Virus record (IMG/VR): IMGVR_UViG_2529293038_000017
Location: 23,342-87,341 of that record
DNA from: a virus
Taxonomy: Duplodnaviria > Heunggongvirae > Uroviricota > Caudoviricetes
Length of the DNA: 64,000 nucleotides
Direction: 5' to 3' (one strand)
Notes under the pieces: model-generated
The model's database searches: none
The model's input: only the letters and a program-made list of their open reading frames with translations
What the model was told of the DNA's origin: nothing
Program-made: the position numbers and the translations under genes
In this document: piece by piece, positions 22,882 to 64,000 of the stretch
How positions within the stretch are numbered: position 1 is the stretch's first letter
Layout of the letters: each line of letters starts with the position of its first letter

Positions 22882-23697
22882 TTAGCCAAGGCGCTTACGG
22901 CGCAGTTTCATTGACTTTTTGCGGGCAAGTTTTGCCGCGCCGGTCTGGGCTTTTCGACGCGCTTTTTTCAGCGCCGATTTTTGAGCCGCAGTCAGACGTT
23001 TTTTACGCAGGCGTTTACGGATGAGTTTGATCTCACCGTTACGAACAACCTTCTTAAATGCTTCAGTCAGCATTTCATCAGAAGTGCCAGCAACAACAAA
23101 CGCCGCTTCCAGTTCGTCGCGGTCGTCGCTATCTAAACCAGCGATAGAGGCACCAACATCAGCAGCAGCGTCGTCGTCTTCATCGTCAGCCAGTGCTTCG
23201 ATCAGGTCATCATCTACACCGCATGCTGCGAGGAAGTCAGCAACATTTGCCCATGCTTCGTTATAGGCATCGTCCTGTTCTTCTGTAACTTCGGAGTCGT
23301 CGTCATCAGAGATACCAGCGATAGCCTGAACGAAACCATCAAGGGAGTCGAAAGTCAGATCACCGCTATCAGCCCAGGAGAAAACGGCGTCGGCCGCATC
23401 ACTCAACGCATTCTGCATAGCACTTCGATTTGCAGCTTCCAGAATCATCTGGTGCGCCTGTTCGACGGTCCATTCTTTACCGTCTTTCCCTTCCAGGATT
23501 TGCTCTGGAGCCGGGGCAGATGGAACGTTATCGTTAGTCTGTGCCGCCGGTTCCGGATTATTATTAATAACCGGATCTGTTGGCGGTTCGGCGCTTGCTC
23601 GGGCAGACTCCATCAGCTGCACAGGATCAGAGTTCAAAGCGAAACGGGACAGTCCATTCCCCAAAAATGCCCCGGATTGAAAAAAGTTTTTGCTCAT
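22882..23697 (-). CDS. acidic protein with basic C-terminal tail (271 aa)
   Basis: Asp/Glu-rich core, KKRLTAAQKSALKKARRKAQ tail; between sheath-like and downstream structural genes. Confidence 0.45.
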   Translation of the reverse strand: MSKNFFQSGAFLGNGLSRFALNSDPVQLMESARASAEPPTDPVINNNPEPAAQTNDNVPSAPAPEQILEGKDGKEWTVEQAHQMILEAANRSAMQNALSDAADAVFSWADSGDLTFDSLDGFVQAIAGISDDDDSEVTEEQDDAYNEAWANVADFLAACGVDDDLIEALADDEDDDAAADVGASIAGLDSDDRDELEAAFVVAGTSDEMLTEAFKKVVRNGEIKLIRKRLRKKRLTAAQKSALKKARRKAQTGAAKLARKKSMKLRRKRLG

Positions 23698-54808: not shown

Positions 54809-55315
54809 TTGAGTATTTTCAATAAACACGCACACCAGGAACGTCCGTATATCGTCATAGTCGATATTGATGGAACAATATCAGAGGCAACTGAAGACAG
54901 ACTGCATTTGCTTCCGCCACCAGGTAAAGGTGCATTAACAAAGGACTGGAACGAGTTTAATCTCGCCTGTGACACCGATACTCCCATCACTCCAGTTATT
55001 GATATGGTGCGCCAGTTATTTAACGTTTACACGGTCTGGTTTGTAACCGGGCGCTGTGAGATCGCAAGGGATAAAACACGAGCTTGGCTGCGGAAGTACG
55101 TAACAAACGGGGCTGAGCCTTTGCTATCTATGCGTCCTGCCACCGATGACAGAAATGACGGCCCAGCAAAGATTGATCTCCTTAAGAAAATTGGTCTAAG
55201 TAAAATCGCGTTCGCGCTGGAAGATAAGATTGAAGTGGCGCGTGTTTTCAGGAGTCACGGCGTACTTACGTTAATGGTCAGGGAGTATGAAAACGCGCTT
55301 CTTCATCAGCAATAA
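54809..55315 (+). CDS. HAD-superfamily phosphatase-like protein
   Basis: Motif I IVIVDIDGTISE; TTG start in track after GAGGAGGG. Confidence 0.45.
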   Translation: MSIFNKHAHQERPYIVIVDIDGTISEATEDRLHLLPPPGKGALTKDWNEFNLACDTDTPITPVIDMVRQLFNVYTVWFVTGRCEIARDKTRAWLRKYVTNGAEPLLSMRPATDDRNDGPAKIDLLKKIGLSKIAFALEDKIEVARVFRSHGVLTLMVREYENALLHQQ

Positions 55316-55331
55316 TTGCTCTAATAAATCT
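55315..55331 (+). promoter_or_regulatory. C1-type operator
   Basis: ATTGCTCTAATAAATCT, 1 mismatch. Confidence 0.6.
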
Positions 55332-55413
55332 TGATTTTTAAAACAGAGAAAGTGAAAATAAAAACATGCCGCAAGGCGCGGCATGTATCCAATCAATCAC
55401 AGGAGCTGAAAAT

Positions 55414-55500
55414 ATGAACACGGCATTCAAAATCATTATGGCCGCGATCTATTTCTGGCTGTTCTCTATCACTTTTGGCGGCATCGTCGCGCATGGGTAA
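55414..55500 (+). CDS. 28-aa hydrophobic peptide (candidate small membrane protein/toxin-like)
   Basis: MNTAFKIIMAAIYFWLFSITFGGIVAHG; AGGAG 9 nt upstream; below track cutoff. Confidence 0.3.
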   Translation: MNTAFKIIMAAIYFWLFSITFGGIVAHG

Positions 55501-56244: not shown

Positions 56245-56466
56245 ATGCAATCAGTTATTTGTGAGGAAGTCGGCCTGAATAAAGCATCCCCAGCAGAGTT
56301 AAGAGCAAGTCTCGAAATGGCGCATAGCCTTGCTCAAATTGGTGTCAGGTTTGTACCAATTCCAGTTGAAACAGATGAAGAGTTTCACAGGTTAGCGGCA
56401 TCGGCAGCACAAAAGCTGGAAATCATGGCAGCGAAAGTAGAGAAAGCTGAAGGAGCGACAAAATGA
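56245..56466 (+). CDS. hypothetical protein (73 aa)
   Basis: ORF in operon. Confidence 0.4.
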   Translation: MQSVICEEVGLNKASPAELRASLEMAHSLAQIGVRFVPIPVETDEEFHRLAASAAQKLEIMAAKVEKAEGATK

Positions 56467-56678
56467 GCAAGCCAACCGACGAAGAAATAGTTCGGGTGTT
56501 GGAAGAACACGGGCGCTGTATGACTTACGTCGTGACCAACTGGCTTAGGGATAAATATCGCACACTCAAAACGGCATACGTTTTGCGTCGTCTAAAAAAA
56601 CTGGAGTTCGACGGGAAAGTAAAGCGCGTTAACAGTTCTTATATAAGACAAATTTGCTGGGAGGCATCCAGTGAGTAA
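56463..56678 (+). CDS. small basic protein, possible winged-helix regulator (71 aa)
   Basis: ORF overlapping stop/start. Confidence 0.4.
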   Translation: MSKPTDEEIVRVLEEHGRCMTYVVTNWLRDKYRTLKTAYVLRRLKKLEFDGKVKRVNSSYIRQICWEASSE

Positions 56679-57315
56679 CCGTTTTTACATGATGTGCTTG
56701 CGTGAAACTGTGGGTAATAACGCCTCATTCCATTGCCATAACGGCAATGGTTACAGTTCTGATATCGATCGCGCTCATGTTTACACGCTGGAAGAAGCCC
56801 AAAAAGCCTGGAATTGTGGGCGAGATATCGATCAGCCTGTTTGTGCCGATAGTGTGGATGCAATGGCTGTGTGGCACGTTGATTGCCAGTACATCCCTAC
56901 AGAAAGCCTGATTGAGTCAGATTGCACTGCGTATGTGGCCTACAAAAAAGGTAGCTGGAACGGCAACGATGTTTACTGGCTTCAACACGGTGGATTGCCA
57001 ACAGATGACTTCAGTAAAGCGACCATCTTTAGCGTCGCCAACAAAAACGAACCAGGAATAGTTTGGTTGCCATTTTCCATTGCTGATGCAGCAAAGCGCC
57101 GGACGTTCAATATCAATAACTTTAACCGCAGAACAATGGTTCAGGGCGCAGGTTTGGTCATGCCTGACTGGTTGAAAAAGCAGAACAGAAGAAAGAAGTC
57201 GCGAAGCGGGAAGGTGCGTTGGAATTGTCCGCATTGCGGAAAAATCACCTGGCAGTACAACCCATATGATTTTGAAGGCTGTAGTGATTACAACTGTGAA
57301 GGATGGCGAGAATGA
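56671..57315 (+). CDS. Cys-rich protein (214 aa)
   Basis: CPHCGK...C..YNCEGW and other Cys pairs. Confidence 0.45.
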   Translation: MSNRFYMMCLRETVGNNASFHCHNGNGYSSDIDRAHVYTLEEAQKAWNCGRDIDQPVCADSVDAMAVWHVDCQYIPTESLIESDCTAYVAYKKGSWNGNDVYWLQHGGLPTDDFSKATIFSVANKNEPGIVWLPFSIADAAKRRTFNINNFNRRTMVQGAGLVMPDWLKKQNRRKKSRSGKVRWNCPHCGKITWQYNPYDFEGCSDYNCEGWRE

Positions 57316-57995
57316 CAATTGACTATCAGGTACTGCGCGAGGCGGCGGAACAGGCAACGCAAGATGAATGGGTAGCATATATTTTGCCGGGCCAAAACGG
57401 CACTTATCCTGCGCATACGTCTGAGGGTAGGCATTGCGGATACTTTATTGACTGGCCTGGCATTGATGGACAGAGAAACGCTGGTGCCAATGCCCGTTAT
57501 ATCGCGGCTATCCCACCCAAAGTTGTGCTGGCTCTACTGGATGAAATTAAGCGCCTGGAGGACACAAATATTGATGCTATGTGTCGAATTGCAGAGCTTG
57601 AGACTAATCTCGCGGCGCTGGTGGCGGAGAATGTGGGGCTAAAGGCGATATGTGATGACCGTCGCAGGTTCATCATGAATGGGGTGCAGATGGGTTATAT
57701 CAAGGTGCCAGCAGCGGAAACAGATCCAGACCTTGAGACAATTCGCATTGCTATATCACCACAAAAGCCCATTCCAGCCACTGATGCTTTCCTGTCTGAA
57801 GTGCGGGCGCAGGGGGTGGATGCTGCTATAGAAGCTGCAAAAAATCTGGTGGTCCAAGAATATGAGTATAAGGATTTCAAAGCGGCGCAGAGTGATTGCT
57901 GTATGCACCCTGGTTCAGACCTGGTAGGGAAGGTTGAAATGACTGAGTGGTTAGTTGACTTTGCTGCCCAGCTTCGCAAAGGAGGCAGCCAGTGA
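57303..57995 (+). CDS. Ead/Ea22-like protein, paralogue A
   Basis: N-terminus DYQVLREAAEQATQDEW shared with next ORF. Confidence 0.5.
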   Translation: MARMTIDYQVLREAAEQATQDEWVAYILPGQNGTYPAHTSEGRHCGYFIDWPGIDGQRNAGANARYIAAIPPKVVLALLDEIKRLEDTNIDAMCRIAELETNLAALVAENVGLKAICDDRRRFIMNGVQMGYIKVPAAETDPDLETIRIAISPQKPIPATDAFLSEVRAQGVDAAIEAAKNLVVQEYEYKDFKAAQSDCCMHPGSDLVGKVEMTEWLVDFAAQLRKGGSQ

Positions 57996-58408
57996 GCAAA
58001 ATTGACCATCAGGCACTGCGTGAGGCGGCAGAGCAGGCAATGCATGACGACTGGGGATTTGACGCGGACCTTTTCCATGAGCTGGTAACACCATCGATTG
58101 TGCTGGAACTGCTGGATGAACGGGAAAGAAACCTGCAATACATCAAAAGCCGCGATCAGGAGAACGAGGATATTGCGCTAACGGTAGGGAAGCTGCGCGT
58201 TGAGCTTGAAGCAGAAAAACAGCGGGCAAAAGTTCTATTTATGGAAAATGCTCGGCTTAAGTCAGGCATAGCCGGTCTGATACACCTCGGTATTCGATAT
58301 GCAGATGTTGAGGTCATGAAAATTGCTGGAGATGCCCAGCTTTCTACCCCATGCACTGACAGCATCATAAACAGCATTGCAACAGGCATTCGCATCAAAG
58401 GAGAGTGA
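57992..58408 (+). CDS. Ead/Ea22-like protein, paralogue B
   Basis: N-terminus DHQALREAAEQAMHDDW. Confidence 0.5.
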   Translation: MSKIDHQALREAAEQAMHDDWGFDADLFHELVTPSIVLELLDERERNLQYIKSRDQENEDIALTVGKLRVELEAEKQRAKVLFMENARLKSGIAGLIHLGIRYADVEVMKIAGDAQLSTPCTDSIINSIATGIRIKGE

Positions 58409-58409
58409 T

Positions 58410-58925
58410 ATGGCGTTAACACACCACGAACTCTGTCAGATTGCGTACAAGTTCCTTAAGCGCAACGGGTTCAAGGTTTGCTTTCATGACCGCTTTGTTG
58501 CTGTAACCAGTACCGGAGAACAGCCAGATGCTATGGGATTCAGAAATTCAGCATCATGCCTGATAGAGGCGAAGTGTTCTCGTGCTGACTTGTTGGCAGA
58601 TAGAAAAAAGCGTTTCCGTAAAAATCCCTCACTTGGCATGGGCGACTGGCGATTCTTTATTAGTGAGCCGGAAATTATTTCAGTTGAGGATTTACCTCCC
58701 GGCTGGGGATTACTTCACGTTGTTAACGGAAGAGTACGGAAAGTACATGGGTGGCCCAAGGGTAATTGCTGTTGGGGTAATCCTGACGATAAGCCATTTA
58801 CTGGAAATAAGCAGGTTGAATGCGATTACATGTTATCTGCATTAAGGCGCATGGAGTTGAGAGGGCACCTTAATGAAATATATGACGGTGTAATTGTTAA
58901 TAAGAAAGAAGGAAACGCAGCATGA
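58410..58925 (+). CDS. PD-(D/E)xK nuclease-fold protein candidate
   Basis: Start at ATG 58410 (AAAGGAGAG upstream); GEQPDAMGF...CLIEAKCS. Confidence 0.4.
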   Translation: MALTHHELCQIAYKFLKRNGFKVCFHDRFVAVTSTGEQPDAMGFRNSASCLIEAKCSRADLLADRKKRFRKNPSLGMGDWRFFISEPEIISVEDLPPGWGLLHVVNGRVRKVHGWPKGNCCWGNPDDKPFTGNKQVECDYMLSALRRMELRGHLNEIYDGVIVNKKEGNAA

Positions 58926-59308
58926 TCACTATTACCAAAGAACGCCTGCTGACAATCCAGCAGTGGCGCGAAACATACGGACCTGGTAGCAACGTTGTAC
59001 TGCCAGCAGAAGAAGCGGAAGAACTGGCACGAATTGCTCTGGCATCGCTGGAAGCAAAACCAATAGGTGCATTCCACATTGCAGAACAGCAAGTTGACGG
59101 CACAAGTGACTACATCAAGGATGGGGAGTGGCCTATTGATAATGGAATTATTGAGGTCTACGCCGCTCCCCCCGTTCCAGTAGTACCGGAAGAAAAACCA
59201 ATGCCTAATCCTCTTAGCATGTACGCGGTTGATGCTGTTGCCGCTATTGCAGAGGTAAGAGGCTGGAATGCCTGCCGCGCGGCTATGCTTCATGGGAAAG
59301 GAAAGTGA
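58922..59308 (+). CDS. hypothetical protein, paralogous to N-region of 59741..61012
   Basis: Shares ALASLEA(K/E)P and VYAA(P/A)P..VVP with the DUF551-like protein. Confidence 0.45.
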   Translation: MITITKERLLTIQQWRETYGPGSNVVLPAEEAEELARIALASLEAKPIGAFHIAEQQVDGTSDYIKDGEWPIDNGIIEVYAAPPVPVVPEEKPMPNPLSMYAVDAVAAIAEVRGWNACRAAMLHGKGK

Positions 59309-59531
59309 TATGGCTAACTCATTACTTGAAACCTGCAACAACTGGCAGATTCAGAGGGCGGAGATTTTATCTCACAATCCAGATATGGCAATGACAATTG
59401 ATAATCTGGACACGCTAATTGAACGGACCGTGCGTTCTGCAATTGATATAGCACATCGAGTGGATTGGGATTTCAGAGAAGCGGAGCGGCTTGCTAAAGA
59501 GCAGGAGAAAGCAGCGGGTAAAGGAGACTGA
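59268..59531 (+). CDS. hypothetical protein (likely start at 59313, MANSLLE)
   Basis: ORF in operon. Confidence 0.4.
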   Translation: MPAARLCFMGKESDMANSLLETCNNWQIQRAEILSHNPDMAMTIDNLDTLIERTVRSAIDIAHRVDWDFREAERLAKEQEKAAGKGD

Positions 59532-59730
59532 TATGGATAAAAACACCACTGCTTACTGGAATCTGTCACTTGATACCGAATGCCCAAAATGCGGTCACAA
59601 TTTCGATCTGCTTTGTGATCCAGATTTCTGGGAATTTTCTGGAGCAAAACAGGCATGTGAAGAAATAAAAGGTTACGAAACATGCTGTCCAGAATGTAAC
59701 CATGAATTTAAAACAGATTTTGTGTATTGA
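59491..59730 (+). CDS. zinc-ribbon protein (likely start at 59533, MDKNTT)
   Basis: CPKCGH...CCPECNH. Confidence 0.45.
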   Translation: MLKSRRKQRVKETDMDKNTTAYWNLSLDTECPKCGHNFDLLCDPDFWEFSGAKQACEEIKGYETCCPECNHEFKTDFVY

Positions 59731-59740
59731 GGCATAACGA

Positions 59741-61012
59741 ATGACCACTTTTACTAAAGAACAATTAATAGAGATGATTAAGCGCAATATAACGGTTATG
59801 GATCGTTATCCTGATTTAGTAACTGCACAAATGGATCTGGAAGTATACAAAATTGCGCTGGCATCACTGGAAGCAGAACCAGTTGCTTATATTTTCAAAC
59901 ATCCGGCCGGGAAATTATTCTGGGCTTTAACGGATGAAAGCAATAAAGAGCAAGCGGACGTTATTCCTGTTTATGCTGCCGCGCCTGCGTCGGTTGTGCC
60001 GGATAATGCATCAGAGCCTCTTGCTTATGCTTACAAAGAGCTTACGCCTGAGATTATGCGCAACCATTTAGCTGTATTCGAGCGATATGGAATAGCCCCA
60101 AACGATAGCTCTACCACAATTCAGGCACTGCGAATCGCGCTGGATGGTATAGAGCGGAGCGACGCCATGCTTCAGTCCGGAAACTTTCGGGAAAACAAGA
60201 ATTCGTCAACCAATAATTTTCGGGAAATCGCGGAAACGTCAACCAACTATCCGGTAATTCCTAGTGAGGTGTTGTCCGCAATCCTGAAGGTTGCCAAGAT
60301 TCGTGCCGATTTCGATGATTTTGACGGTGACAGGCGAGGTATCGATGATTGTCTGGATGAGGCTGAGCAAGAGCTTATCGTTACCATTAACAAATATGCC
60401 AGTCAGTTGGCAGCAGAACCGATAGCGACTAATGACGTTCGAGAGCAAACAGCCGTTCCGCCAGTTCCGGTAATGCAGGCTGATGTCGCGCAGGCAATTG
60501 AAAAACTCAAACGGAAATTAGTGGAATGCAATCGCTATAACTACTGTGCAGATGCAGTTAAAGGCGTAGAGGATGCCTGCCGTGCTGTTAGCTATAGCCA
60601 AGCCGACAATCAGCCAGCATCTGGCAACCAGGCTGCCGAATCCAATCGCGATAATGAGTGGACTGGCAATCCTGATATTGATAACGCCATCATCATGCTC
60701 GACCGCATAGATACGCTGGAAAATTGCGATGATGACCGTATTGAGGCTGTTAAGGCTGTTTTGCGTAGACTGGCTGGCAACTATCCGGTAATTCCGGATG
60801 GTTGGATAAGCTGTAGTGAGCGAATGCCTGAGAACATTCCCGGAAGTTGTAAAGAGTATCTGGTGTTTGATGGGCTTAATAATAAAGTTCATCACGATTA
60901 CTGGGTTGTCCCTGATGGAGACAGTGCGCCAGTTGCGTCGTTCTGGAATCATTACGGGGCACATGTAACTCACTGGATGCCTCTACCAGAACCGCCGCAG
61001 GAGGCGAAATGA
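59741..61012 (+). CDS. protein with C-terminal DUF551-like domain (423 aa)
   Basis: C-terminus W..CSERMPE...HVTHWMPLPEPP. Confidence 0.5.
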   Translation: MTTFTKEQLIEMIKRNITVMDRYPDLVTAQMDLEVYKIALASLEAEPVAYIFKHPAGKLFWALTDESNKEQADVIPVYAAAPASVVPDNASEPLAYAYKELTPEIMRNHLAVFERYGIAPNDSSTTIQALRIALDGIERSDAMLQSGNFRENKNSSTNNFREIAETSTNYPVIPSEVLSAILKVAKIRADFDDFDGDRRGIDDCLDEAEQELIVTINKYASQLAAEPIATNDVREQTAVPPVPVMQADVAQAIEKLKRKLVECNRYNYCADAVKGVEDACRAVSYSQADNQPASGNQAAESNRDNEWTGNPDIDNAIIMLDRIDTLENCDDDRIEAVKAVLRRLAGNYPVIPDGWISCSERMPENIPGSCKEYLVFDGLNNKVHHDYWVVPDGDSAPVASFWNHYGAHVTHWMPLPEPPQEAK

Positions 61013-61269
61013 TGGATGTAAAAGAGAAGGTTTTGCAGGTGATGCGTTCCCGGGCTGCCCTGCAAGATAAAGCTCTCGTCGGGAAATATCCATTCAGGAT
61101 GGCAACCTGGAATCTGCGGTTGGCAATGGAGAAGGAATTTCCTGATGAAGAATGGCGTTCGGCAGATTTGCGCAAAATTCTTATGGAGATGGCTAAAGAT
61201 GGAACAGTATCCAAAGATACCCATGCCAGCCGGATTGGTCAGGCGGTATGGAGACTGGAGGTGAGGTAA
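61009..61269 (+). CDS. hypothetical protein (86 aa)
   Basis: ORF in operon. Confidence 0.45.
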   Translation: MMDVKEKVLQVMRSRAALQDKALVGKYPFRMATWNLRLAMEKEFPDEEWRSADLRKILMEMAKDGTVSKDTHASRIGQAVWRLEVR

Positions 61270-61345
61270 TAAGCTGGCCTGAAGCATTTGCGATTGTAGG
61301 CGTAGCTATGGCGATTGCCGCTATTTTTATCTTCTGGGGGTAACG

Positions 61346-61579
61346 ATGGGAAAATTAACTTTTGTAGTCGAATTTGAGGATGGCAAAGAGCCACCTGTTA
61401 GCGCCAATCTTGATGTTGCTGGTGGCAGGCTGGTTTCGGTTCTATTTGGTGATTACCGCGACGACTTCTTTCAGCCTGAAGAAGTTGATGTAGTGCGAGA
61501 AGCATTAAACGAGCTAAGTGTTGATAACGATGATGCTCATGCGGAAATCATCAAAAAAATGGAACTGCTAACTCACTAA
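61346..61579 (+). CDS. acidic hypothetical protein (77 aa)
   Basis: ORF in operon. Confidence 0.45.
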   Translation: MGKLTFVVEFEDGKEPPVSANLDVAGGRLVSVLFGDYRDDFFQPEEVDVVREALNELSVDNDDAHAEIIKKMELLTH

Positions 61580-61661
61580 ATTATCAATTATGGTGCTATC
61601 ACCTACGACACCGAGAGAAAATTTATAATGTCAAAAGTAAATGTTTTGATTTTTTCAGCAA

Positions 61662-62051
61662 TTGTTGGCTTTGGTTTTACTGCCGGAGTGCAGATTTATA
61701 TTACGTGGGAAAAAATCATCAACTACGCATGGAGTTGTTTTATTAAGTGAGGTAAGTATGTGGAGAGGTAATAATCATGGCAAAAGCCAGATGATACTTA
61801 CCGAATATAAGCTAGACCACAAAACCAATAAATCACGCTCAGTATATTTGCTCCGGCACAATAGCCGCGTAAGAAATACCGTGCTGGAACAAAATCTGAC
61901 AGTTGAAATGGATAATTGCGGGGGATTCAAGCCAACAATTTCGCTTGATGATTTTCCTCGTGGTTTAAGCGAAAGAGAAGCAATGCTGAAATTAGCAGAA
62001 TGGCTACAAAGATTAAGCATTGCTATTGAAGATAACTGGTCTGAACCTTAA
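61662..62051 (+). CDS. hypothetical protein (start possibly 61758)
   Basis: ORF in track. Confidence 0.4.
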   Translation: MLALVLLPECRFILRGKKSSTTHGVVLLSEVSMWRGNNHGKSQMILTEYKLDHKTNKSRSVYLLRHNSRVRNTVLEQNLTVEMDNCGGFKPTISLDDFPRGLSEREAMLKLAEWLQRLSIAIEDNWSEP

Positions 62052-62057
62052 ATTTAT

Positions 62058-62432
62058 ATGATGACACTAAAACATTTTCTTGACCGCCCATTATGGGCGG
62101 CAGCCGCAGGCTATGACTTTAATTATATGGATTGCATGTCTTATACTGCCAATGCATACGACCATTCGTTCATCCTGCTGTTTAATTCTTTAAGAATATT
62201 GCCGGAAACAGAAGTTGGAGAGCTTCATTTATGGCTATTGGGCTTTATCGCGGCTGTCGTTGGTATTGCTGTATGGCCTTTTATTTTCTGGCTGGTGGCT
62301 GTTGTAGTGTGGTTTAAGTGCAAGACATACCGGAAAAAGTATTTCTTAGGTGATGGAATGACTGATATTGCCAAAATGAACATTGAAGAATGGACTAAGG
62401 AATGTGAAAAGAAATGGCGCAAAAAGAAATGA
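62058..62432 (+). CDS. membrane protein (124 aa)
   Basis: Hydrophobic LLGFIAAVVGIAVWPFIFWLVAVVVWF. Confidence 0.45.
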   Translation: MMTLKHFLDRPLWAAAAGYDFNYMDCMSYTANAYDHSFILLFNSLRILPETEVGELHLWLLGFIAAVVGIAVWPFIFWLVAVVVWFKCKTYRKKYFLGDGMTDIAKMNIEEWTKECEKKWRKKK

Positions 62433-63064
62433 CCAGAATCACTGAAGAGCGCATATCAGAGATTATTTCCCGTATCGAAATGTATGGTCACGGTGCTGGA
62501 TATACGGCAGATGAAGTATTGGAAATAGCCCAGCAGATGCTGGCCTTGAGACAAAAAGAGCAACATGAAAGTAATACGTGTAGATTGAATTTTGAGCATT
62601 GGCTGGAACAGCAACGCGGAAAAATCGATGTGGACTGTGGTTGTGTGTCCACTGAAACATTCATGCACTGGCTGTGGGTAGCTTACGAGGCTGGCAACTA
62701 TCCGGATATTCCGGATAGTTCGGTGCCAGCGCCAGGAAAGGGCGTCACCGGTGAACGTATCCGCATTAAGCCGCATGTTTATCGCGAACTGGTTAACCGT
62801 CTCCACGATACAGCGATCAAGTGTGCTGGCACCCAGCAATTACGAGAAAGAATTAGCCGTGTTTTGGGCGACGTTATTACACCAGATCATCATAAACAAG
62901 CCGAGAAAAGTGACCTGGAAAGGTGTCACCTTGAGGCGGCATTAAACATTAAGCCGGGGCATACGCTTGGCATTATTGATGCACTATTGGTTCATAAGAT
63001 GGCCAGGGCTTTATTGCCGCTGGTGGCTGAAAAGCATGAGGTGGACCATGCCAACGAAAGCTGA
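62414..63064 (+). CDS. hypothetical protein (216 aa)
   Basis: ORF in operon. Confidence 0.45.
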   Translation: MAQKEMTRITEERISEIISRIEMYGHGAGYTADEVLEIAQQMLALRQKEQHESNTCRLNFEHWLEQQRGKIDVDCGCVSTETFMHWLWVAYEAGNYPDIPDSSVPAPGKGVTGERIRIKPHVYRELVNRLHDTAIKCAGTQQLRERISRVLGDVITPDHHKQAEKSDLERCHLEAALNIKPGHTLGIIDALLVHKMARALLPLVAEKHEVDHANES

Positions 63065-63332
63065 ATTACAGGTGCGCGTAGATGAGCTGAAAAAGAGAAC
63101 GCGAGCCTCAAAAAAAATGCTGTCGCGGGCGGAAAGGGAATTATCAGGCAAATTATTGCCAGAAGAACTGCCGCCAGCAGATATACCAGATCGAGTGTCC
63201 CAGTGGATGAAGTCTTTTGGTTTACCGTGGGAGGCTTTTTGGTGCTACGACCATCGCAGATGGTGTGATGAACTTGATAGCAATTTTCCCTACTTTGCGG
63301 AAGGGAACACCTGCCCTCAATGCAGGGGATAG
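63048..63332 (+). CDS. hypothetical protein with C-terminal CPQC (start set to 63048)
   Basis: Internal ATG with GAGGTGG upstream; track start 62967. Confidence 0.35.
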   Translation: MPTKAELQVRVDELKKRTRASKKMLSRAERELSGKLLPEELPPADIPDRVSQWMKSFGLPWEAFWCYDHRRWCDELDSNFPYFAEGNTCPQCRG

Positions 63333-63667
63333 CATTTGACGAAATCGATCACCCTATCCTGAACTTCAGATAGAAGGTCTTTTTCACGCGCCAGGACGTC
63401 AGGATATTGACGTTCTGGCCTTACCAGATGCCGGAGCTTCCCATTAAGCAGAATGGCCTCAGAAAACACTTTTACGCTGTGCTTTATCCCCTCTGTTTCA
63501 CTTTTCAGCGTCAAAATAAAGCGCAATTGCTTATTAGCCTGATTCGGATTCAATACACGAATTTGCAGTTCGTCTATGCTGTTTCGCAATGGGATTGATG
63601 CCACCACACTGGTGCAGTCTCTGATTGTCTGAATTGAACGGCTAACATTGAGAACGTTATTGTGCAT
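63317..63667 (-). CDS. hypothetical protein, lone reverse-strand gene (116 aa)
   Basis: Convergent with upstream operon, divergent from hot with only 32-bp spacer. Confidence 0.45.
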   Translation of the reverse strand: MHNNVLNVSRSIQTIRDCTSVVASIPLRNSIDELQIRVLNPNQANKQLRFILTLKSETEGIKHSVKVFSEAILLNGKLRHLVRPERQYPDVLAREKDLLSEVQDRVIDFVKCYPLH

Positions 63668-63699
63668 GTGCCTGATCCACTAACTCCTGGAGGTTTCTT

Positions 63700-63978
63700 G
63701 TGTCAGATCGAAATATAGCAGCTAAAAGCCAGGAAGAGCGAGACAAGGTGAACGTAGACCTTGCCGCCAGCGGCGTTGCTTACAGAGAACGGCTGAATAT
63801 ACCTGTGATTGCAGAGCAGGTGGCCCGTGAGCAACCGGAAAACCTGCGCGCCTATTTCATGGAACGGCTACGGCACTACCGGCAGTTAAGCCTCCAGTTG
63901 CCAAAAGGGGGCGATCCGGTGTATCAGAACGAGGATGCACCAAAAAATAACGGCAAGATGGGGGAGAAATGTGATTAG
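63700..63978 (+). CDS. hot: homologue of DNA polymerase III theta subunit (HolE-like)
   Basis: DKVNVDLAASGVAYRERLNIPVIAEQVAREQPENLRAYFMERL matches recalled E. coli theta; GTG start after GGAGG. Confidence 0.8.
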   Translation: MSDRNIAAKSQEERDKVNVDLAASGVAYRERLNIPVIAEQVAREQPENLRAYFMERLRHYRQLSLQLPKGGDPVYQNEDAPKNNGKMGEKCD

Positions 63979-64000
63979 CCCCAGCGTGGCGCGCCTACAA

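Follow-up and report, generated by a model that had tools for sequence, protein, structure and literature searches.

Ead/Ea22, nuclease-fold and Eaa/DUF551 genes in the pap-hot region of a P1-like phage-plasmid, a probable set of lambdoid accessory genes

Genes of the block and their families

The DNA considered here is a stretch of 64,000 nucleotides from a tailed phage (IMG/VR record IMGVR_UViG_2529293038_000017, positions 23,342 to 87,341), hereafter called the window, and all coordinates are positions in it. In the present study, we analysed the 3.7-kb interval 57303-61012, in which two genes of the Ead/Ea22 family, a gene with a predicted nuclease fold and two genes of the Eaa/DUF551 type lie on the + strand (Table 1). 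The block belongs to a P1-like phage-plasmid and lies within its variable pap-hot region, with a pap-like open reading frame (ORF) at 54809-55315 and a theta/hot-like ORF at 63700-63978. With a probability of about 0.72, we read it as a lambdoid exo-xis accessory set which was assembled at short repeated DNA boxes in this C1-controlled region. Eight variable regions have been described in P1-like phage-plasmids, and the pap-hot locus is among them (PMC9603915). The five ORFs named in an earlier reading of this DNA, here called the original prediction, were all found in place on the + strand.

In the original prediction the first two ORFs were paired as Ead/Ea22-like because of a common N-terminal motif. 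This motif is present in both translations (IDYQVLREAAEQATQDEW and IDHQALREAAEQAMHDDW), and both proteins score above the Pfam gathering threshold of PF13935 (Ead_Ea22, 27 bits; that of PF04448, DUF551, is 22 bits). They align with each other in BLASTP at E=7e-8, with 25% identity over 181 columns. Ead1 is composed of the conserved N-terminal box and a C-terminal domain of its own and ends in ...RKGGSQ; at its N-terminus 12 of 18 residues are identical to lambda Ea22 (E=4e-5). Residues 1-78 of Ead2 are 88% identical to lambda Ea22 (E=2e-48), and the protein is divergent beyond them and ends in ...IRIKGE. Genes for Ea22 are known as mosaics, in which a common N-terminal and coiled-coil part is followed by unrelated C-terminal domains, one variant carrying DUF551, and for the proteins a tetrameric assembly with a central coiled coil has been described (PMC10834534). 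A pro-lysogenic role of Ea22 in phage development has been reported (PMC7093339).

The 171-aa protein encoded between the two pairs had been called PD-(D/E)xK-like, and this call was upheld by fold and by motif. An AlphaFold2 (AF2) model made with 31 homologues (predicted local distance difference test, pLDDT, 84.4; predicted template-modelling score, pTM, 0.79) has an alpha-beta-beta-beta-alpha-beta core, namely helix 5-18, strands 23-26, 41-45 and 48-54, helix 58-64 and strand 80-85. In this model D40 and E53-x-K55 are placed on neighbouring strands, E53-A-K55 being the (D/E)-x-K signature. Furthermore, E37, D40, E53, K55, D60, D64, K67 and R70 are invariant in the family down to 34% identity, and the catalytic residues are kept across relatives which are 34-47% identical. 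In the Foldseek search against the PDB, the best match was 3dnx (SPO1766; E=4e-6, probability 1.0), and the other matches listed were all PD-(D/E)xK proteins (Hjc, HincII, AF1548, Bax1, R2 endonuclease and arenavirus cap-snatching nucleases). The structure 3dnx represents DUF1052/PF06319 in the PD-(D/E)XK catalogue (PMC3424549), and the current name of that family is MmcB-like. In addition, a search with a broader profile found 3dnx at 8.4e-5 with the catalytic motif aligned, and the matches in BFVD (viral) include several proteins annotated as MmcB-like. Because of these fold and profile matches, the 171-aa protein is probably akin to the MmcB-like proteins.

Membership of PF06319 was not reached at the family threshold, since the window protein had no match to it and its relatives matched PF06319 or Hjc at E~1e-4, below gathering. 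The Pfam matches of the distant relatives were weak (Hjc in 14 of 35, MmcB-like in 9 of 35, best E=2.9e-4). Searches of the PDB with the single sequences of the nuclease, Ead1 and the 423-aa protein gave nothing significant, 3dnx being reached by profiles only. The family of the 171-aa protein is large (317 close matches; 3286 cluster representatives at E<=0.001); it falls in PHROGs 9263/631, to which no function is given, and in no Pfam family. Its most plausible role would be on branched or recombination intermediates. In RefSeq the P7 homologue upf89.0 (NC_050152, 4689-5204) bears the name 'minor tail protein'. Fold and motif contradict this label, which is apparently a misannotation and could spread to other records.

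The last two ORFs had been proposed as a DUF551-like pair. Their kinship stood over an N-terminal module of ~95 aa (BLASTP E=2e-7, 32% identity over the first 95 aa), but DUF551 itself was found in 59741-61012 only. The two ORFs match the same PHROGs (60, 5117, 660 and 3323) and share the expected motifs, IALASLEAKP and VYAAPPVPVVP in the shorter and IALASLEAEP and VYAAAPASVVP in the longer one. The longer ORF also carries HWMPLPEPP in its C-terminal DUF551, which matches PF04448 at 1.4e-13 and 51.9 bits over model positions 1-68 of 68. For 58922-59308 no Pfam match was obtained. Its relatives are DUF551/Eaa proteins of 200-220 aa, with whose first ~125 aa it shares 93-98% identity; they continue into DUF551, whereas this ORF ends at the CRAAML box that precedes the domain. 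A form of identical length, 128 aa, is represented by 212 sequences, which make up one cluster and come from ~92-kb contigs. The best full-length relative of the 423-aa protein is 87% identical, and its AlphaFold model was poor (mean pLDDT 43, pTM 0.23; ~66-81 for residues 1-45 and ~57-61 for residues 51-80). An NCBIfam search of ten ORFs gave no family apart from a weak zinc-ribbon match, that of the 65-aa protein. In two chromosomal prophages of E. coli (L011 and L012), the RefSeq Prokaryotic Genome Annotation Pipeline (PGAP) records a frameshift in the nuclease gene and labels several Eaa modules 'partial DUF551' pseudogenes. Short modular genes like 58922-59308 are routinely scored as pseudogenes, so real short genes may be under-counted.

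Table 1. Genes, operators and repeated DNA boxes in and around the block (window coordinates)
Feature	Position	Strand	Remarks
C1 operator matches	17570, 19234, 33881, 37157/37168, 49550, 53174/53223, 55315		pairs 37157/37168 and 53174/53223 oppositely oriented
P1 C1-repressor operator ATTGCTCTAATAAATCT	55315-55331	+	1 mismatch to consensus; directly 3' of pap stop
Lambda orf63 homologue (DUF1382), 73 aa	56245-56466	+	75% identity over 59 aa, E=7e-32
214-aa gene, phrog_2457, P7 upf87.6	56671-57315	+	overlaps Ead1 start by 13 nt
Ead1, Ead/Ea22 family, 230 aa	57303-57995	+	PF13935 6.6e-21, 75.8 bits; phrog_368 2e-66
Ead N-terminal box	57317-57372 / 58000-58055	+	56 nt, 84% identity
LLDE box	57523-57545 / 58098-58120		23 nt, 87% identity
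Ead2, Ead/Ea22 family, 138 aa	57992-58408	+	PF13935 1.4e-23, 84.5 bits; GTG start overlapping Ead1 stop
Boundary box (Shine-Dalgarno, stop, start) AAAGGAGAGTGATATGG	58394-58417, 59294-59317, 59517-59540	+	24 nt, 71-83%; encodes '+GE'-type tails
Predicted PD-(D/E)xK-fold protein, MmcB-like/Hjc clade, 171 aa	58410-58925	+	putative catalytic residues E37, D40, E53, K55
Eaa N-terminal module without DUF551, 128 aa	58922-59308	+	ends at CRAAML(H/Q) box and Shine-Dalgarno-encoding tail GKGK
IALASLEA box	59032-59062 / 59851-59881	+	31 nt, 90% identity; recombination joint
73-aa gene, phrog_10585	59310-59531	+	present/absent between two copies of the 24-nt boundary box
Four-cysteine zinc-ribbon protein (CPKC...CPEC), 65 aa	59533-59730	+	weak zinc-ribbon Pfam, NCBIfam matches; phrog_4173 9e-28
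Multi-module EaA protein, 423 aa	59741-61012	+	Eaa module 1-95, mosaic helical middle, DUF551 354-420
NYPVIP box	60244-60261 / 60778-60795	+	18 nt, exact
216-aa gene with third, distant Eaa N-terminal helix pair	62414-63064	+	BLASTP E=0.019 to ORF 58922 residues 1-41

The paired genes were set side by side by recombination at short boxes

In the all-against-all comparison of 16 ORFs, two clear pairs only were found, each at E=1e-6, and the pairwise alignments are significant. The DNA of the paired genes gave no alignment outside the short boxes listed in Table 1. For comparison of homology breakpoints, 92 loci were used, comprising 12 database hits or encoding contigs and 80 IMG/VR loci. Among 174 distinct breakpoints, 91 lie at most 10 nt from repeat copies that cover 14% of the interval (binomial p ~1e-31); the strict test used only window repeats defined beforehand, and a wider set of 13 boxes was partly defined after the breakpoints had been seen. 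The breakpoints cluster at the Ead N-terminal box, inside which P7 upf88.3 diverges from the window, and others are found at 60260 and 60775-60830, near the NYPVIP copies. These copies are 534 nt apart (178 codons, in frame) and bracket the middle modules of the 423-aa protein. An imperfect tandem repeat of 33 nt (78% identity) occurs in the same gene at 60182-60246, just 5' of the first NYPVIP box, where it encodes NFRENKNSSTN and NFREIAETSTN and forms a low-complexity linker at a recombination hotspot.

Products of crossover can be read directly in related elements. P7 upf89.5 and a gene of a Shiga toxin (Stx) 2c phage are identical to ORF 58922 before the IALASLEA box and to ORF 59741 after it. 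Furthermore, upf89.5 runs on into sequence of the type of ORF 62414-63064 and so joins pieces of three separate window genes; window 62568-63026, the C-terminal part of ORF 62414, is 95.6% identical to P7 6009-6467, the C-terminus of upf89.5. In the chromosomal prophage L011 the 73-aa gene is missing and the junction falls inside the boundary box. Because the pairs are unalignable outside the boxes, exact crossover products exist and the breakpoints cluster at the boxes, the pairs are old family members. Homologous recombination at short, conserved linkers has made them neighbours, and not recent duplication.

Locus, control and competing explanations

The flanks of the block are 97-98% identical to IncY P1-like plasmids and are collinear with IncY plasmids, P7 and P1, and the + strand carries a dense series of small genes at ~55.4-63.3 kb. 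The original prediction placed lambdoid-type accessory genes in a P1-like backbone, and these flanks together with the likeness of Ead2 and of the orf63 homologue to lambda agree with it. The comparison with the corresponding P1 interval was also carried out. In the P1 reference, pap and hot are separated by ~2.3 kb containing pmgT-U-V and upfM-N-O, and the genes of the block are all missing; in P7 the locus has a partial counterpart, in which the nuclease gene is accompanied by a single Ead gene and a single, fused gene of the Eaa type. The homologue of 56245-56466 is annotated as DUF1382 in a related plasmid, and with this gene the lambdoid exo-xis block reaches upstream of the genes first noted. 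An ORF at 56463-56678 was considered as a homologue of lambda orf61 and was rejected after comparison with orf61. The 214-aa gene at 56671-57315 opens a block which is common to lambdoid and Stx prophages (blastn of 56660-58041 against the Stx2c phage, 87.6%), and a gene of this type also precedes an Ead gene in the prophage L084.

The block is collinear with the lambdoid exo-xis (early-left) region. In chromosomal lambdoid and Stx-like prophages the same order is found, with two to three tandem Ead genes, the nuclease gene and Eaa/DUF551, downstream of N-kil-recT and upstream of xis/int. Of 5426 complete E. coli genomes, 3169 contain pieces of the 3.7-kb interval, mostly in the chromosome, and roughly 750 plasmids hold pieces as well; no record covering at least 80% of it was found in the phage, plasmid and E. 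coli collections. The prophage L012 (E. coli APEC17, NZ_CP178203, 3576631-3587980) carries lambdoid replication genes (DnaT-like O, P) and an Ead-nuclease-Eaa block that runs into DNA 99% identical to window 60159-64000, including P1-type hot, humD and phd-doc. It has the appearance of a hybrid of a lambdoid phage and P1, or of a P1-like fragment that has integrated.

The operator at 55315-55331 matches in position P1 OpmgT/Op88, with overlapping promoters, and P7 Op(hea), both of which are annotated there, and it is presumed to be the control point of the whole + strand gene string. Nine matches to the P1 C1 operator (17-nt consensus, at most 3 mismatches) were found in the window, against 0.25 expected by chance, and they confirm its P1-type immunity circuitry. 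At 55364-55386, after the operator/promoter and before the first genes, there is a GC-rich hairpin of the ACATGCCGCG...CGCGGCATGT type with a perfect 10-bp stem. It is followed by a T-run on the - strand only and may be a leftward terminator or a 5' leader structure; a possible ORF for a 28-aa membrane peptide starts after it at 55415. The gene junctions in the block are overlaps or 1-nt gaps, each with an AAGGAG-like Shine-Dalgarno sequence before the start. In simple pattern scans, no convincing + strand terminator was seen before 61308 and promoter-like sites were not in excess. On account of the C1 operator after pap, the tight Shine-Dalgarno-coupled junctions and the lack of a strong terminator before 61308, we infer that the block is part of a single C1-repressed, translationally coupled early transcript.

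The boundary boxes also bear on the C-termini of the Ead proteins. Dydecka et al reported that all Ea22 proteins end in a basic residue followed by Gly-Glu ('+GE') and called the significance of this tail unknown (PMC7093339). In Ead2 the IKGE tail is encoded by ATCAAAGGAGAGTGA, which gives an AAGGAG Shine-Dalgarno sequence and the stop, 2 nt before the ATG of the nuclease gene. The other tails, KGG(N/S)Q (KGGSQ in Ead1) and GKG(K/E/D), encode AAGGAGG or AAAGGA. In the fetched loci, all 29 distinct ORFs with a '+GE' tail and all 27 with a 'GGxQ' tail are followed by a coupled start, as compared with 38% of other ORFs, a crude control that includes non-genes. It is suggested from these sequences that the '+GE' tail is the encoded Shine-Dalgarno of a coupled downstream gene. 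The lambda ea22 gene has the same terminal box and no coupled gene, which is consistent with a relic of coupling.

Together, these observations suggest the following course of events. The gene string of ~55.4-61.3 kb, which probably goes on to ~63.3 kb, would fill the pap-hot region and be read from a promoter overlapped by the C1 operator, so that it would stay unexpressed in the plasmid prophage and come on early once C1 has been inactivated or a cell infected. Its genes, in the order orf63 homologue, two Ea22-family genes, nuclease-fold gene, Eaa N-module, two tiny genes (one a zinc ribbon) and the long EaA/DUF551 gene, would be translationally coupled by stop/start overlaps or 1-nt gaps after AAGGAG. 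The two Ea22-family genes, whose products begin with a common N-terminal segment and differ in their C-terminal domains, came to lie side by side via box recombination. As judged from relatives, the two proteins may bias the lysis/lysogeny decision in the manner of lambda and Stx-phage Ea22, and the nuclease may act on phage or host DNA structures in early replication or recombination, independently of its neighbours.

Several points weigh against this reading. The pro-lysogenic activity has been shown only for Ea22 of lambda, Phi24B, 933W and P27, all under pL; the decision circuit of P1 differs, so the function of Ea22 may not be transferable to it. The single-operon view is derived from the operator match, the tight spacing and simple pattern scans. 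On the 171-aa protein of the window, Pfam models gave no significant match, and the same was true of NCBIfam and PADLOC. The breakpoint events are phylogenetically non-independent, and the ends of BLAST high-scoring segment pairs only approximate the crossovers. In addition, ORF 58922-59308 may be a non-functional remnant, as PGAP scores similar truncated copies as partial pseudogenes.

Local duplication and mosaic acquisition had both been offered as origins of the pairs. A local tandem duplication within the P1-like element followed by divergence agrees with the adjacency and common orientation of the same-family genes and with the short DNA stretches which are still 84-90% identical. However, the DNA is unalignable outside the boxes, the pairs are only 25-32% identical as proteins, and the high-identity DNA consists of boxes of 31-56 nt at the breakpoints. 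Each member has its own relatives of 95-99% identity in other phages; Ead2 goes with lambda Ea22 (88%) and ORF 58922 with chromosomal Eaa (93-98%). Moreover, tandem Ead genes of varying types occur in lambdoid prophages too, and the single copies of P7 are crossover products in sequence. Duplication in place is therefore highly improbable, and mosaic acquisition is borne out by the shared IncY-like flanks, the absence of the cassette from the P1 reference, the lambda-like genes and the breakpoints at the boxes. It is also unlikely that the block is for the most part decaying cargo, in which 58922-59308, and perhaps the tiny ORFs, would be non-functional recombination remnants. ORF 58922 lacks the DUF551 borne by its close relatives, and in chromosomal prophages the pseudogenes called by PGAP include fragments of a comparable kind as well as frameshifted nuclease genes. 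Nevertheless, all ORFs of the window are intact with Shine-Dalgarno sequences and start/stop coupling kept, the 128-aa form recurs as the 212-sequence cluster described above, and the catalytic residues of the nuclease are invariant in relatives 34-47% identical.

The block could alternatively be a single functional system of the defence, anti-defence or toxin type, with the coiled-coil and DUF551 proteins regulating or targeting the nuclease. The order Ead, nuclease, Eaa/DUF551 recurs in P7, in Shigella phage POCJ13 and in the majority of the 80 IMG/VR loci whose nuclease is at least 98% identical, and the genes are translationally coupled. In contrast, in 80 loci with a nuclease of 39-75% identity, Ead_Ea22 was found upstream in 4 of 71 and DUF551 downstream in 4 of 78, and the neighbours are cytosine methylases, SNF2/ResIII helicases, SSB, NinB, NinG, YbcO and dATP/dGTP pyrophosphohydrolase. 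A motif-based classification of neighbours was crude (it missed IALVSLEA-type variants), was used qualitatively and was replaced by reading of ORFs and Pfam censuses. Prophages of Providencia and Lonsdalea carry the nuclease gene in the nin region beside RusA or NinG and NinB, and lambda has ea22 without the nuclease, yet with the same terminal DNA box. The PADLOC matches were all insignificant (E >= 0.0014), which leaves a known defence system unsupported. A common system is thus rather improbable, and an obligate three-gene system of Ead, nuclease and DUF551 was rejected because the distant relatives of the nuclease have other neighbours. Since these neighbourhoods are mostly without Ead or DUF551, the nuclease gene is best regarded as an independent early DNA-metabolism module.

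The preferred reading remains that of lambdoid accessory genes assembled at boxes in a C1-controlled P1-like locus, and in this sense the block is ordinary phage mosaicism, a new combination of known parts. The family or superfamily of every component, the variable locus and the sub-gene mosaicism of Ea22/Eaa genes were known already. The particular combination appears to be new, which is judged from the best full-length match of the 423-aa protein being only 87%. The block documents that genes of the lambdoid exo-xis pool enter P1-like phage-plasmids at an already known variable locus, where pieces smaller than a gene are exchanged via the boxes. Two by-products may be mentioned, neither of which alters the current view of phage biology. 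A simple explanation is offered for the '+GE' motif of the Ea22 literature, and a very common prophage gene (PHROGs 9263/631) is recognised as a likely MmcB/Hjc-like PD-(D/E)xK nuclease-fold gene. A bolder, joint proposal is doubtful. It holds that the boxes are kept as a shared linker system, that the '+GE' tail is the footprint of the downstream ribosome-binding site and that the 171-aa protein represents a large unnamed MmcB/Hjc-like phage nuclease family with a distinct role in the DNA transactions of the early phage stage. If this were true, the Ead, IALASLEA, NYPVIP and boundary boxes would enable frequent exchange of the C-terminal effector modules of Ea22/Eaa proteins among lambdoid and P1-like phages. 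The boundary boxes would dictate the '+GE', 'GGxQ' and 'GKGx' tails, and the whole would be a recombination-driven diversification cassette.

Comparison with known systems

Among the Eaa/DUF551 proteins (PF04448; YfdS of CPS-53 and the C-terminal domain of Ea22_V2), the full DUF551 model is matched by the C-terminal 67 aa of ORF 59741, and the N-terminal module of the window genes is common to thousands of 'Eaa/EaA' proteins of E. coli prophages. Unlike these, the 423-aa form has a mosaic helical middle of ~260 aa between the NYPVIP boxes, and its 128-aa neighbour is the N-module alone. With the MmcB-like protein 3dnx, the 171-aa protein has in common the alpha-beta-beta-beta-alpha-beta core, and its motif D40...E53-x-K55 followed by S-R-x-D-F/L-x-x-D aligns with 'DVMG...IECKSSRADFQAD' of 3dnx. 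Unlike the MmcB-like and Hjc proteins, it has an additional C-terminal region of a beta-hairpin and helix (residues 100-158) and belongs to a large phage-borne family of its own.

The exo-xis region of lambda and Stx phages (orf60a-orf63-orf61-ea22-ea8.5) resembles the window in its orf63 gene, of which the 75% identical homologue lies upstream of the block. The Ea22-family proteins agree in the N-terminal segment (88% over residues 1-78 in Ead2), in the PF13935-covered centre and in the variable C-terminal domain, as in PMC10834534, and Ead2 shares with lambda ea22 the C-terminal KGE tail and the terminal DNA box. A further likeness would be that the genes form an early operon controlled directly by the master repressor of the prophage, the operon of the window being a proposed one. 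In contrast to lambda, where CI/pL control is exerted next to xis-int, the block lies in a P1-like plasmid prophage under C1 and has two tandem Ea22-family genes. The C-terminal domains of its Ead proteins differ from the solved lambda C-terminal domain and had no PDB sequence match, and ea8.5, orf60a and orf61 were not found in the block.

The P1 reference differs from the window in that the whole cassette is missing. The closest counterpart is the Op(hea) operon of P7 (upf88.3-upf89.0-upf89.5) in variable region 8 (pmgT...humD), which shares the pap-hot locus and the C1 operator with the window. The nuclease genes of the two are 97% identical, and modules of the window's Ead and Eaa genes recur in their P7 counterparts. 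P7 carries a single Ead gene, against two in the window. Its single Eaa gene is a fusion and represents a crossover product of window ORFs 58922, 59741 and 62414; in the window the Eaa arrangement is split, and three additional small genes are present.

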